A DNA stretch of 64,000 nt from TPA_inf: Saccharomyces (lineage: Eukaryota). Below, in pieces: positions 1-6,360 of the stretch (position 1 is its first letter; the number at the start of each line of letters is the position of its first letter). A program made the translations under genes and the position numbers. The notes under the pieces were generated by a model. The model made no database searches. It saw only the letters and a list, made by a program, of their open reading frames with translations, and had not been told where the DNA came from. The stretch spans positions 1 to 64,000 of the forward strand of contig BK006934.2 in assembly GCA_000146045.2 (NCBI GenBank), in the 5' to 3' direction.

Positions 1-35
1 CCCACACACACCACACCCACACACCACACCCACAC
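1..35. repeat. Terminal telomeric repeat, (C1-3A)n on the + strand = TG1-3 on the - strand; left telomere end
   Basis: Seen directly: cccacacacaccacacccacacaccacacccacac at the window start, the irregular C1-3A pattern characteristic of S. cerevisiae telomeres. Confidence 0.9.
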
Positions 36-444: not shown

Positions 445-2235
445 TCACTCTCCAACTTCTCTGCTCGAATCTCTACATAGTAATATTATATCAAATCTAC
501 CGTCTGGAACATCATCGCTATCCAGCTCTTTGTGAACCGCTACCATCAGCATGTACAGCGGTACCCTCGTGTTATCTGCAGCGAGAACTTCAACGTTTGC
601 CAAATCAAGCCAATGTGGTAACAACCACACCTCCGAAATCTGCTCCAAAAGATATTCCAGTTTCTGCCGAAATGTTTTATTGTAGAACAGCCCTATCAGC
701 ATCGACAGGAATGCCGTCCAATGCGGCACTTTAGATGGGGTAACTCCCAGCGCAAGCTGATCTCGCAAGTGCATTCCTAGACTTAATTCATATCTGCTCC
801 TCAACTGTCGATGATGCCTGCTAAACTGCAGCTTGACGTACTGCGGACCCTGCAGTCCAGCGCTCGTCATGGAACGCAAACGCTGAAAAACTCCAACTTT
901 CTCGAGCGCTTCCACAAAGACCGTATCGTCTTTTGCCTCCCATTCTTCCTGGCACTTTTTCTCGTCCCAGTTCAAAAAGTACTGCAGCACCTCTGTCTTC
1001 GATTCACGCAAGTTGCTCCATACTTTATAATACAACTCTTTGATCTGCCTTCCAGACATGCGGAAAACTTGGCTCCCTTGCTTGCCTCTTGTCGAATCCA
1101 ATACACTAATTGTTTCTCTTCTTCTAGTAATGGCCAGGTACCAAGCATAATTTCTCTGTATCTGAGAGTAGATCTCTCTCCTTTTTACGCTAAAAAATTT
1201 CAAATACCCTACAGGGTCCCCATGATATGGCTCGATGTCTTCCAAGTATTCTTTGTATTCCTCGTCATTTCGCAGCATTCTCTCCACAGCTAGTGCTTCC
1301 CAAGCCATCCTCCGATACGATACTTTCTGGCCAGCCCAACAGACACAGAGCTCGAACATCTTTTGACAGCCCTTGCATAATCCGTATTGTGTGAATACGC
1401 CCTCTGGGCAGAAGTATATGTCAATACCATAGAGGAAAAGATGTTTAATTTCGTCAGACCGAAATCCAAGAAACTGTAAGACATTCATATTCTCGGAAGT
1501 ATTGGGAAATTGTGCTTTCAGTTTCTTTCTCTCTAGCAAAACCATTTGACTCCCTTTCCGCTTATACGGCTCTTTGTTAATGTCGGTGACTGGATGGAAT
1601 CTATTATCCTCAGCATTGCCATCTTTATTGGCGTCCTCCTTGGCACTAGCGTTGGTACTTTCAGTGGTAGTAGCATTAGTGCTGGAGTTGGTGCTAGCAG
1701 TGGTAGTAGCATTAGTGCTGGAGTTGGTACTTTCAGTGGTAGTAGCATTAGTGTTGGAGTTGGTACTTTCAGTGGTAGTCGCACTAGTCCTGACGTTGAT
1801 GCTGGCAGTGGTAGTCGCACTAGTCCTGACGTTGATGCTGGCAGTAGTAGTAGCACTAGTCCTGACGTTGGTGCTGGCAGTGGTAGTAGCATTAGTGCTG
1901 GAGTTGGTAGTCGCATTGGTACTGGCGTTAGTACTGGCATTAGCACTACCATGAATGCACGTGTCGCTGTCCTCATCACTGCTGCAATACTTTCTGTACC
2001 TGTCACTGCTATTGCTCTCCTGGAAGCTAGACGGTAACGCAACGATCGACATGGAAGCTGTCGCCTGATTTTCAGCCAATCTGTCCATTCTTTCTATCAG
2101 TTCCACTGTGTCAGCAGACAGGTCTGTCCTGGAGCCACAGCATCCAACATGCTGGCCCTTTTTTCCTTTCTTTGATTCAAGTCCATAGAACTCGCGTACC
2201 TGTTCGGTTATACAGCCTTCCTTAATTGGTGGCAA
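445..2235 (-). CDS. YHL050C: Y' element helicase C-terminal portion, the continuation of the Y'-Help1 ORF in a different frame. It contains the 12-aa (36-bp) [12 protein letters not shown] tandem repeats.
   Basis: 596 aa ORF. Upstream of its first Met the same frame reads ...[24 protein letters not shown], continuous with the intact Y' helicase sequence, so 445-3671 is one gene split by a frameshift or intron. Confidence 0.8.
1600..1930. repeat. 36-bp in-frame minisatellite (at least 7 imperfect copies) inside the Y' helicase ORF
   Basis: Units agtggtagtagcattagtgctggagttggtactttc, agtggtagtcgcactagtcctgacgttgatgctggc and similar, repeated head to tail. They encode 12-aa repeats on the - strand and spawn spurious ORFs in other frames. 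Confidence 0.85.
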
Positions 2236-3671
2236 TTCACCCTTACGATTCCTTGCGGCCCAACTGTTTTTTCTAGATAATAGATAACAGAGCCCCCCCC
2301 CCCATCTCTTAGTCTCCCTACGCCTTGAATGAGCTCAATAATATTAAGTCTATTATCAAGCATGATCACCATCATCAATTGCTTAATGTCAATTCCTTCA
2401 GTCACTAATTTTGTTCCGATGAGAACTCGCATGCTACCGTCAGTGACAAACTCCTTTGTGCGAGACACCTTTTCTGCAGCACCCAGCTTCCCGTGTATCC
2501 ATACCACCCTAAAATACTTTCTCCAAGAGCAGGCCAATTCTTCCACTTCGTTGGTTGTGCTTGCAACTACAATGGCCTTCGACTCTGGTTCACTTTCAAA
2601 GAGGGCTAAAAGAAGCTTCAGTGCTTCTTCGGGCTGTGATTCCACTTTCTTCCGAATTTTATGAACATGCCCTAAAGGCACCTTGGATTTCTCCTTGATT
2701 AGATTAAACATCCGTGTTGGATAGCTGGATAGACCTCTGCTGAGATCTTCCGACCGTTTGAGCTCGTTGATGTCCATCGACTTCTTGGCCAGTCCCGTAA
2801 GCCCAATACGCTGCAACGCAGCATCAGCAACAGCCTCAGGGGCTGTGCCGCTCAAAAAGATTGCTTTCTCAAAAGCGTCAAAATCAAGGTTAGTTATGCC
2901 CCCAAATTGCGACTGCCGGTAGACCTCCGTTTCAAAGTTGTGCAACTCATCTACAATGAGGTAACCCAATTTTACGTTGTTGGTCCTAAAGGTGCACTCA
3001 ACAATATTCTCCCACGCAGCTATCCTGTCTGTGAAATTAGTGCTAGCAAGATCATCGTAGATCCCCACGTATAAATCAGTAACGCCATCGCAACCTTCTT
3101 CAATAAAGTTTCTTACAGGGGCCACATTCAAGCAACCGCATCGGCCCAACCTGATCATGCAATTAGCAAGCAACACTGTGTACGGTACAAACAGAAACGA
3201 CACATATTCCACGTCGCCCTTAGACGCCAGTGCTATCAAGGGGAGATGAAATAACTCCGTCTTACCATAGCCCGGTGGGGCCTGTACTGCCACAGAGGGT
3301 GTGTCTGCCATGTATATTTCATGACATAAGCGCAACTGATGCAAGTCCCTGAATTCAAAGGAGCTGCCAAAGAGTTTCTGGCCTGCGACGAGGATATCGT
3401 TTGTACTCTTGGGCTCTCGGGGCCTTTTTCGCGTTACTCTTGAAATTTTTTGATCATGATCTGAACTCGCCGCCTCACCTGCCACTACGTCTTCCGCATT
3501 CCGAGTACTAGAGAATGAACAATGGTAGTCGCTTTCAAGGCCTAACCATTGAATCCAGCGCTCGGAAGTGAGTCCGTCAAGCGTCTTTAGTCGAGGCTCC
3601 GATGAACCGTTCTTGTTGTATCGTCGACGTATACGTTGCGCTGTAGCTCTGGATAACGGTAAGCGTATCAC
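2208..3671 (-). CDS. YHL050C: Y' element helicase, N-terminal/helicase-core portion (DEAD/DEAH-like; GYGKTE Walker A, VDELH, SGT motifs). It is disrupted relative to intact YRF1 by a frameshift. The reference model, as I recall it, starts at Met121 (nt 3311) and joins this to the downstream ORF through a putative intron.
   Basis: ORF track 487 aa with motifs [26 protein letters not shown]. The C-terminus [13 protein letters not shown] diverges from intact Y' helicase ([33 protein letters not shown]) immediately after a G11 run. Confidence 0.8.
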
Positions 3672-3725
3672 CGTAAGCTCGTCAATTATTTTTGAGAGCC
3701 GCGGTCATTTTGTTAGTATCTCTTC

Positions 3726-4541
3726 TCAACTTGGGCAGCACACATGCAAAACATCACCCAATCGGTCCTTTTTGTTCATCATATCGTTACATATCTGTGA
3801 AAAGTACTTTATCTCAGTGGGTTTACGTGGGCATAGATCACGCTTCAGCCGCTCTGTGTCGACTTTCTTTTCGCCAGGTAAACTTGCTTGGTATGCAGAA
3901 AAAATCGATAGCTCATCTACGTGTAGTAACAAAAACATGTGGGGTGCCAAATTGTACCCATATTTCCTTATGGTGCTTTTCTGAAGACTCCTTACAATAG
4001 GTGCGCCAGAAACAAAGTCAGTGAAAGTACGCATCGTAGAGCTGTCGTTCGGCCTGGCACTCGCTATTTCGTGACAACGTTCCAGGACACGGAAACTCAA
4101 CTCATTATAGTATCCTCTGTTGAGGTAAAAAAGAGAAAGGGTATCGTAATCCTTTCTATTGAATTTCAAAGTATGCACTTGAAACAACGTGTAGACCATC
4201 AAGTTGATTTTCTTGGGAATAAGATACTTTGAAGGGATTGGTCCGCCCTGGAAATCTGGTTCGTCTTCAACAAACGTCAGGAACTTTTGTACATTTTTCC
4301 CGACCATGACGGAAACGACAATTTTTTCAAAAGACCTTTTCCTATCCATTGCACCAGTTCTGAATTTTACCACTTTGATTAGGCCAGACTTTTCGTCTTC
4401 GTAGAATGACCGCACTTCCGTGGGGATCGATTCAAATAAAGTTATTGAGGGACAATGTACCAAGTCGTTTTTGTTATTTAGAGCCGACTCAAACTCGTCA
4501 AAGTTTGCTTTTTCAAACTTACGCCTATCGGAAACTTTCAT
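3726..4541 (-). CDS. YHL049C: Y'-element-encoded protein (second Y' ORF), 271 aa, unknown function
   Basis: 271-aa ORF inside the Y' element downstream of the helicase ORF. Its position and length match the Y' ORF I recall as YHL049C. Confidence 0.6.
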
Positions 4542-5059
4542 TTTATTTTTGTAAGTTTCGAAATTAACAATAGTATGTTGATTGTTATGCTTTTTGACAA
4601 GAAATCCATCAATATAAACAAAAGATTGTCCAGTTTCCGTCTTATCATCATCTAAGAATGTAATAATTAAGCTACTCTATTGAGAAGAAGCAGAATCTGC
4701 GCTATGCAGGTGCAAATCTCCAGCAGCAGCAAAGAAAATTCAGTTAATAAGAAATCTCACTAAGATAAGCGACTGTCTGTCCCAACATAGAAAACAGAAG
4801 GATGTCTCATTCATCGCTTGATTTCCGGCCTGCAAAAATAAAGCAGTCGGTACGTGCTTTCGTTTTCAATTTCCATGGTGCACAGTATCTTAACCGTCTG
4901 CTTAGTCGAGGAGAACCAGGATTCTGTTCGTTGCTCAGCCGCTTCGTGGATAAATTTTATTACCCCGCTGAGGTAGAGGAGCCCTTTTTGGCGTACCAAG
5001 TCACTTCCTAATGCTCCATGTCCCACCCACCATGTTGAAACGTTGACAAATGATCGTAA

Positions 5060-6360
5060 ATAATACACACGTACTTACCCACACACACCACATGCCACAC
5101 TCACTTGCACTTGTATACTGGTACGGCATACGCACACGGATGCTACAGTATATACCACTCTCAACTTACCCTACTTTCACATTCTACTCCACTCCATGAC
5201 CCATCTCTCACTAAATCAGTACTAAATGCACCCACATCATTATGCACGGCACTTGCCTCAGCGGTCTATACCCTGTGCCATTTACCCATAACGCCCACGA
5301 TTATCCACATTTTAATATCTATATCTCATTCGGCGGCCCCAAATATTGTATAACTGCTCTTAATACATACGTTATACCTCTTTTTCACCGTATACTAACC
5401 ACTCAATTTATATACACTTATGCCAATATTACAAAAAAATCACCACTAAAATCACCTAAACATAAAAATATTCTATCCTTCAACCATAGTACATAAACAC
5501 ACTCAATTGCGTATCAATACCACCATGACGTCATTAACTTAAATGTTCCTTAATACCGTCATACCACTATGCTCTATTCCATATATTGTAATATAACTGT
5601 ACTCTATAGTCATACAGACGCTTTTACTTCACCCTATCTTCTCATACTATTGTCATAGAATCTCACACTGACGCATGATTAAAACGAATAATTTTTACTA
5701 TAAGGCCTCCCATCCGTGCTCTACCCTTTTGTTTGCAATATTTATACAGAATCTCAAAGCAAGCGGGAGAAGTGGTGATTACCCAGATGTCATGCATGAT
5801 CTGAGCACCACCGTACCTCTAGGTTTTGCCTTGATCAATTTTACAGTGACACCAAGCATAAGGATAAAAAATGGTATTGAAAGGTTGTCCACATTTGTAA
5901 GTAACTTGGTTCTATGAATCTTCATGTCAGATACGTAGGACGGACTCTTTCCTGTGTAAATATTTGTGACAGCTACGTCTATTTTCTACTAGATGTTTAC
6001 ACAGTTTTGTCACAGGAAATCTACGCTTAAAATATGTATTTCATTCAAGCGGTAACCGCTGTACGAGCAGTGACATTGCTGGTCGCACCTTAAATGTAAA
6101 CCAAAGTTACGGCACACCGTGATGCACCCGCATTAAAGTTTTGTAAATTCGTTATTACGATTATCGAGTTGGCTAGATAGAAAACCGGAAATGAAATGGA
6201 TGCCCTTTTCGAATAGCTGAGTTTCTTTGCCTAAAATAGCCCAATATTGTTTCCCTTTTTCTATCACGAGGTTACTGAGCCATTGCATGAACGCGCGCGC
6301 CTCGGCGGCTTTTTTTTTCTGCTGTGCTGTATAAAAGCGAAAAGTCAGAAGTTACTATTT
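5060..6360. repeat. X-element-like subtelomeric region: degenerate internal telomeric repeats, subtelomeric repeats and a core-X-like segment. Boundaries are uncertain.
   Basis: cccacacacaccacatgccacactcac at about 5060-5105 is a degenerate TG1-3 junction. The AT-rich repeat at 5396-5500 recurs at 7690-7795. There is a 10/11 ACS-like match, ggtttacattta, on the - strand near 6098-6110. Confidence 0.45.

Follow-up and report, generated by a model that had tools for sequence, protein, structure and literature searches.

The YHL050C locus and its split reading frame in the reference sequence

The window, by which we mean the whole stretch of DNA that was analyzed, comprises the first 64,000 nucleotides (nt) of Saccharomyces contig BK006934.2 (GCA_000146045.2) and is the left end of chromosome VIII of strain S288C (TEL08L). 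It contains YHL050C, a helicase gene of a Y' element, and our subject is a run of 11 G residues (G11) that splits the reading frame of this gene in the reference sequence. Joining 3311..2671 to 1897..445 on the minus strand gave a protein of 697 amino acids (aa) that is residue-for-residue NP_011813.1/P38721 (YHL050C, S288C). This agrees with a preliminary description of the DNA, made from sequence alone, which had stated that the reference gene model bridges two open reading frames (ORFs) with an intron between 2670 and 1898. The setting is subtelomeric, with C1-3A repeats at 1-35 and the end of the helicase ORF at 445, and at the nucleotide level the Y' element of the window is 96-99.5% identical to Y' loci from other strains. 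Pfam detected a superfamily-2 helicase core in the product of the upstream ORF, consisting of DEAD (aa 6-163, nt 2823-3296, E = 1.8e-13) and Helicase_C (aa 231-334, nt 2310-2621, E = 2.3e-16). At the level of the family, ATP-dependent helicase activity and induction in telomerase-deficient survivors have been described (Yamada et al. 1998, as cited in PMC6726248). By its location, domains, minisatellite, and near-identity to other copies, the gene is an ordinary member of the Y' helicase family, departing from it only in lacking a continuous ORF, and only in the reference. The coordinates of the features are collected in Table 1.

The homopolymer is C11 at 2293-2303 on the plus strand and so G11 on the minus strand, which is the coding one. 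The 64 kb contain no other C or G homopolymer of at least 8 nt, and none of 100 dinucleotide-preserving shuffles produced a C11 (0.00 expected by chance). The tract starts 7 nt past the end of the Helicase_C domain. The upstream frame is open as far as 3671 and, with G11, continues out of frame past the tract to a stop at 2208 (...KAV). Read from base 2292, the downstream frame is free of stops over 616 codons and ends ...SSREVGE. The ORF list contains both frames, 2208-3671(-) and 445-2235(-), and they are mutually out of frame, as had been claimed. Since codon starts are congruent to 2 mod 3 upstream and 0 mod 3 downstream, the frames rejoin at a run of 9 or 12 (-2 or +1 bases), which agrees with the earlier arithmetic. 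The copy can also be recognized by its flank: a copy-specific variant, GGGCCGCAAGG, sits 31-41 nt downstream of the tract, and the variant TGGGCCGCAAGG, which ends 41 nt downstream of the tract, marks the window copy where other copies have TGGGCGGCAAGG.

Table 1. Features of the YHL050C region, in window coordinates
Feature	Position	Strand	Remarks
Terminal C1-3A telomere repeats	1..35	.	mark the Y' element as chromosome-end
Downstream part of helicase ORF	445..2292	-	LCYLLSRK...REVGE, then stop; 616 open codons; frame offset by one base
36-bp minisatellite	1651..1937	-	TRF period 36, 8.0 copies; encodes Ser/Thr/Asn-rich repeats
'Intron' of the YHL050C gene model	1898..2670	-	773 nt; GCATGT 2670-2665, TACTAAC 1933-1927, CAG 1900-1898
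CC (GG on coding strand)	2251..2252	-	coordinate fits the R64 C insertion; 41 nt from the tract
C/G homopolymer	2293..2303	-	G11 on coding strand, C11 on +; copy-specific expansion of Gly-Gly codons GGG GGC
Upstream part of Y' helicase ORF	2304..3311	-	annotated Met (MADTPSV...) to ...GRLRD
YHL049C	3726..4541	-	271-aa ORF with weak Sir1-domain match; exact identity to YHL049C

Tract length in other Y' copies and assemblies

Other Y' helicases were compared at the tract site using proteins taken from cluster-member lists; the homology search alone gave 12 cluster representatives, without YPR204W. The reading across the site (RDGG-LCY) was uninterrupted in 46 of the 47 retrieved proteins that span it, and the lone exception was a protein identical to the window ORF. 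The 46 intact proteins represent many strains, include YPR204W, YLL067C, and YBL112C of S288C, and in some cases come from yeast DNA in bacterial assemblies. At the DNA level, 14 loci elsewhere read GAT GGG GGC CTC, which is five G followed by CC, and a Y'-like copy of only 84% identity reads GGT AGG GGC CTC. Because this divergent copy also has GGC CTC, that form is ancestral. The tract is therefore a derived, copy-specific expansion that combines a C-to-G change with five extra G (six in the assemblies with 12 G described below). The family as a whole has no such homopolymer that could have slipped by one base; the other copies have G5CC. The preliminary description was thus right that intact Y' helicases read through the site as one ORF, and wrong in so far as it implied a shorter pure G run in the intact copies and a simple slip of +/-1. 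Scans of metagenome and prokaryote-genome contigs found the G5 form in seven copies (six metagenome contigs and one contaminated Streptomyces contig) and no junction with at least six G, which, with denominators this small, shows rarity only.

The closest standard for the locus is YPR204W of S288C, a member of the wider Y'-Help1/YRF1 family whose short-Y' helicase ORF is intact and encodes 1032 aa. It has the same start (MADTPSV...), the same DEAD and Helicase_C core, the same 36-bp minisatellite, and the same C-terminal region. At the tract site its GAT GGG GGC CTC corresponds to GAT G11 CTC in the window (G12 in other assemblies). The window copy is also shorter by 240 nt in the minisatellite and has an additional Ile codon close to the C-terminus. 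An alignment of about 2.9 kb from the Met at 3311 to the stop at 445 against the 1032 codons of YPR204W contained 33 substitutions, three minisatellite gaps totalling 240 nt, one 3-nt indel, and +5 nt at the tract. The +5 at the tract is the only frame-breaking difference, which is the outcome of the comparison that the preliminary description had proposed. With one G added, the window copy differed from YPR204W by 17 synonymous and 17 non-synonymous codons, and the ratio of non-synonymous to synonymous divergence (dN/dS) was 0.0077/0.0295, or about 0.26. The copy is therefore unlike an old decaying pseudogene, a possibility that was rejected on the single lesion together with this ratio.

Two further observations came from the same comparisons. 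Three Logan-contig proteins (P0039-P0041, from 11, 2, and 1 contigs) carry a frameshift at an A6 run (AGAAAAAACAG) equivalent to window 2267-2272. This too is a frame change at a homopolymer, real or artefactual, and it falls in the same part of the gene, 20 nt downstream from the site of the tract. Also, yeast Y' helicase DNA was found on short contigs of bacterial assemblies assigned to Bifidobacterium (for example B. longum WDTB01000051.1), Streptomyces (for example S. narbonensis NZ_BMSF01000042.1), Streptococcus uberis, Clostridioides difficile, Clostridium butyricum, and E. coli, and proteins P0016, P0021, P0025, P0029-P0031, P0037, P0046, and P0048 bear the bacterial annotation 'DEAD/DEAH box helicase'. 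Contamination by yeast is almost certainly the cause, and one guess is that the DNA came from yeast extract in growth media.

Next to these copies stand other assemblies of the same chromosome end. Exact-protein look-ups led to three that were separately deposited, and on an otherwise identical haplotype all three have a tract of 12 (G12) where the reference has 11. The first (GCA_010356925.1, CM021134.1) aligns to window 1984-6311 over 4329 nt without a mismatch, and its single gap is the tract. The second (GCA_016858165.1, CM029096.1), one of five public S288c assemblies (bioRxiv 10.1101/2025.09.11.675652), has 0 substitutions over 8.5 kb; it differs from the reference by G12, by 144 bp more minisatellite, by A12 for the A13 at 94-106, and by longer telomere repeats. 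The third (GCA_947370305.1) shows the same G12, the same additional 144 bp, and the same A12. Over roughly the first 59 kb from the telomere its strain is identical to S288C, and single-nucleotide differences follow beyond, so it is a separately maintained mosaic strain. The only differences between the second and third assemblies fall within the telomere repeats, which shows the two to be independent. A sister assembly of the same accession series (L021) agrees with the reference at 9/9 A/T runs, each 9-14 nt long, across 17 kb of unique DNA.

With G12 the helicase ORF is continuous, running for 1003 codons from MADTPSV to REVGE through RDGGGG-LCY, with 1134 codons open in all. The continuous-ORF feature of the family is thus absent from the window and present in the three assemblies, and the prediction that a run of 12 would restore a full helicase was borne out directly. 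In exact-protein look-ups, no record was found for the downstream ORF product (547 aa from the first ATG) or for the G12 full-length product (1003 aa). The protein recorded for the first assembly, KAF1907227.1, is a 367-aa frameshifted product of the G11 type despite the G12 DNA (1105-nt coding sequence, 'LOW QUALITY PROTEIN'), and its annotation seems to carry the frameshift over from the reference to DNA that lacks it. The A13 at 94-106 and the minisatellite at 1651-1937 also differ from the reference in the second and third assemblies (144 bp being four 36-bp units), so the reference TEL08L seems to hold several repeat-length discrepancies beyond the G tract.

The reference sequence has itself been revised at this spot. 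According to Table S1 of Engel et al. 2014 (PMC3962479), one C was added at chrVIII 2251 in release R64, with the log entries 'TEL08L' and 'YHL050C ... within intron'; we infer that this coordinate is the CC dinucleotide of Table 1. Because of this insertion, the original sequence must have had a one-base indel error beside the tract. The resequencing for R64 used 36-base reads, leaving out repeats, telomeres, and GC-rich regions and disregarding discrepancies of low quality (PMC3962479). Since such regions were excluded, the tract length still rests on the sequence of the 1990s.

The annotated YHL050C intron

The gene model rejoins the two frames by a GC-AG intron whose predicted spliced junction is CCAAGGTGCCTTTAGG/CACTAATGCTACTACC (junction k-mer CCAAGGTGCCTTTAGGCACTAATGCTACTACC). 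The yeast 5' splice-site consensus is GUAUGU, and the site of the model departs from it with C at position 2; it is neither GUAUGU nor a close GU-variant. GTATGT is absent from 445-3671(-). A UACUAAC branch site within 10-60 nt upstream of a YAG is present, and both this putative branch site and the 3' splice site lie inside the minisatellite, where one variant repeat unit (AGT ACT AAC) makes the TACTAAC. The notion that TACTAAC is common in the minisatellite, and its occurrence here a trivial coincidence, was ruled out, as this ORF holds a single copy of the motif and the YPR204W gene has none.

The intron would start at codon 214, wholly inside conserved coding sequence, and would remove all of Helicase_C (aa 231-334). 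In the resulting 697-aa protein, DEAD is the one domain that Pfam detects, so removal of the segment does not leave a sensible product. Other annotated Y' introns are common to sets of paralogues (PMC3226532), whereas that of YHL050C is unique to one copy and is unneeded in the G12 assemblies. Molecular tests of the Y' introns annotated in SGD were negative, and only two Y' introns were supported by RNA-seq, neither matching the SGD models (Talkish et al. 2019; PMC6726248). The preliminary description had named an RNA-seq junction at 2670/1898 as the observation that would argue for splicing, and we looked for it in two intron catalogues. Neither a YHL050C entry nor a 1897/2671 junction occurs in the portions of the supplementary tables of Talkish et al. 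2019 and Schreiber et al. 2015 that were covered.

That the intron is real, and that splicing bypasses the frameshift to yield the 697-aa YHL050C, strikes us as very improbable. The succession GCATGT ... TACTAAC ... CAG with its yeast-like branch-to-3'-site spacing, the in-frame joining of the exons, and the presence of the model in RefSeq and UniProt speak for it. Weighed against these are the off-consensus 5' site, the loss of a conserved domain, a branch site peculiar to this copy, the negative published tests of the Y' introns in SGD, the absence of the junction from the catalogue tables covered, and the circumstance that the intron is required only by one homopolymer base. The verdict of the preliminary description, that a real intron is unconvincing, therefore holds, and we infer that no splicing of the 773-nt segment occurs.

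The neighbouring YHL049C is the N-terminal-side fragment of the coding region of a short Y' element. In the product of the upstream ORF, the sequence KTLDGLTS/ERWIQWLG (aa 30-45, window 3560-3740) is what we take to be the junction of the large internal deletion that defines short Y' elements relative to the long-Y' YRF1. The coding region upstream of this point is broken into YHL049C, which is in another frame. An RNA-seq-supported intron of 206 nt at chrVIII(-) 4652-4857, assigned to YHL049C with a support of 27, is listed in the part of the Schreiber et al. 2015 tables covered here. In the window, 4652-4857(-) lies upstream of YHL049C, begins GCACGTACC, and ends TTCTTAG; its 5' boundary and signal are ambiguous.

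Origin of the tract lengths and consequences for annotation

Long G/C runs are prone to miscounting and slippage. We consider it probable that the allele of this lineage is G12, a two-glycine in-frame insertion just past motif VI, that the reference is one base short through a Sanger undercount or a clone slip, and that the intron is an annotation patch. On this explanation, the ancestral GAT GGG GGC CTC site would have become a pure G run in this lineage, and twelve G would add two glycines in frame (RDGGGG-LCY) and keep the helicase whole, as a single ORF of about 1000 codons. With one G fewer, the reference would then have it split into 2208-3671 and 445-2235. The base could be missing because the run was undercounted when a telomere clone was Sanger-sequenced in the 1990s, or because the clone or isolate itself had slipped by one base, and the GC-AG 'intron' would serve only to put the two frames back together on paper. 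The agreement of the three assemblies suggests that S288C truly has G12 and not G11. The preliminary description had regarded a slippage allele and a sequencing-length error as equally plausible. Both are retained here, but not their equal weighting, as the evidence tilts toward a reference undercount or a slip private to the clone; the stochastic frame restoration that it also raised is speculative.

Another possible explanation is that both lengths are real, the tract being unstable and the isolate or clone behind the reference having contracted by one, so that ON (G12) and OFF (G11) states would exist within the S288C lineage. Among yeast mononucleotide runs, G/C runs of at least 10 are reportedly frameshift hotspots. 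Indel rates climb with homopolymer length (PMC4216917), the haplotypes differ in little else than the tract, and the other differences also fall at mutable repeats (A13/A12 and the 144 bp of minisatellite) and could be true private changes. Against this, only two lengths have been seen, and the odd one is the oldest, a Sanger-era single-clone sequence with a proven 1-nt error 41 nt away. The agreement of three assemblies on 12, including that of a separately maintained mosaic strain, also argues against rapid switching. We therefore regard real instability as unlikely.

Rather less likely still is that G11 is right throughout the lineage and that G12 reflects errors of long reads or polishing. 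The TEL08L helicase would then be a recent frameshifted pseudogene encoding a 367-aa DEAD and Helicase_C protein without the C-terminal 600-odd residues. Homopolymer miscounts are typical long-read errors and are documented for Y' ORFs (PMC13177704), short-read polishing is unreliable in multi-copy Y' DNA, and at other long runs, too, assemblies with G12 depart from the reference (A13, and in one of them T14). The unspliced 367-aa product would also keep both core domains. However, the same +1 call was made in three separately deposited assemblies, and its direction is the reverse of their -1 at A13, so the bias, if any, is not uniform. In addition, G12 restores a 1003-codon ORF with no other lesion, which a random length error would do in 1/3 of cases at best, and the dN/dS is about 0.26.

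Several points weigh against a reference that is one base short. The 2010 resequencing corrected a base 41 nt away yet kept the tract at 11 (Engel et al. 2014, PMC3962479). Both full-length G12 assemblies differ from the reference at a nearby long run too (A12 versus A13), and GCA_947370305.1 has T13 for the T14 at 58901; either the homopolymer calls of the G12 assemblies are fallible or the reference is wrong at those runs as well. Long-read assemblies miscount long homopolymers, and a 2026 survey found homopolymer frameshifts to be frequent in long-read Y' assemblies and indistinguishable from real events (PMC13177704). As to splicing, the catalogue negative extends only as far as the tables covered. 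The 28 nt between TACTAAC and CAG are a yeast-like spacing, and the 64 kb contain just 6 copies of TACTAAC on the two strands together, making the TACTAAC-CAG arrangement a coincidence that mildly favours the intron model.

The frameshift could also be overcome during expression, with the G11 allele decoded at full length by -1 ribosomal frameshifting or by slippage of RNA polymerase II that adds one G. Homopolymers of at least 9 permit transcriptional slippage in other systems, and G GGG GGC formally matches the X XXY YYZ slippery pattern. A stimulatory RNA structure for programmed -1 frameshifting was sought 3' of the tract and rejected, as the 120 nt downstream fold no better than shuffles (minimum free energy -23.3 versus -24.5 kcal/mol, z = +0.37). 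The arrangement occurs in no other Y' copy examined, so it is not a conserved expression strategy, and the frameshift is gone in the other assemblies. Recoding is, of all the explanations, hardly credible. A more speculative form of the instability argument is that the TEL08L poly-G is a hypermutable switch, interconverting in populations of the S288C lineage between ON at G12 (full-length, with a Gly4 linker after motif VI) and OFF at G11 (367-aa, core-only). We hold this to be doubtful; if it were true, the tract would be a eukaryotic contingency locus in a gene family associated with telomere maintenance.

The locus is already known, and what is new is that other assemblies resolve the frameshift. 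The finding is a matter of curation and brings no new biological mechanism. If the tract is 12 in S288C, YHL050C in SGD, RefSeq, and UniProt is a wrong gene model. The 697-aa spliced protein without Helicase_C would then not exist, and the Y' element of chromosome VIII left would encode an intact helicase of about 1000 aa. YHL050C is also among the few annotated GC-AG 'introns' in yeast and as such enters splice-site statistics (e.g., Schreiber et al.). As the case shows, some stretches of the reference subtelomeres have never been validated anew; here the tract, the A13 run, and 144 bp of the minisatellite differ from newer assemblies. We therefore suggest that the tract be re-measured and that the YHL050C intron be dropped or flagged.

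Three known systems invite comparison. The other Y' introns in SGD (YBL111C/YHR218W/YLL066C/YLL067C/YML133C; YIL177C/YJL225C; YRF1-3/-6/-7) are likewise predicted introns that lengthen Y' frames. They are shared within paralogue groups (PMC3226532) and lie upstream of the helicase core, whereas the YHL050C intron occurs in one copy, has a GC 5' site, excises Helicase_C, and steps over a homopolymer frameshift. Bacterial contingency loci with phase-variable poly-G or poly-C also hold a long G/C run within an ORF, where changes of +/-1 toggle between full-length and truncated products. Unlike them, the tract sits in a single copy of a multi-copy, non-essential subtelomeric eukaryotic gene, with no evidence of repeated switching or of selection for switching. 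The nearest parallel is found in the homopolymer frameshifts of assembled Y' elements (GBE 2026, PMC13177704), in which Y' frames also change at homopolymers and error is hard to separate from biology. Those cases are long-read assemblies, whereas the suspect here is a Sanger-era reference, and the tract of the window is a copy-specific expansion rather than a homopolymer common to the family.

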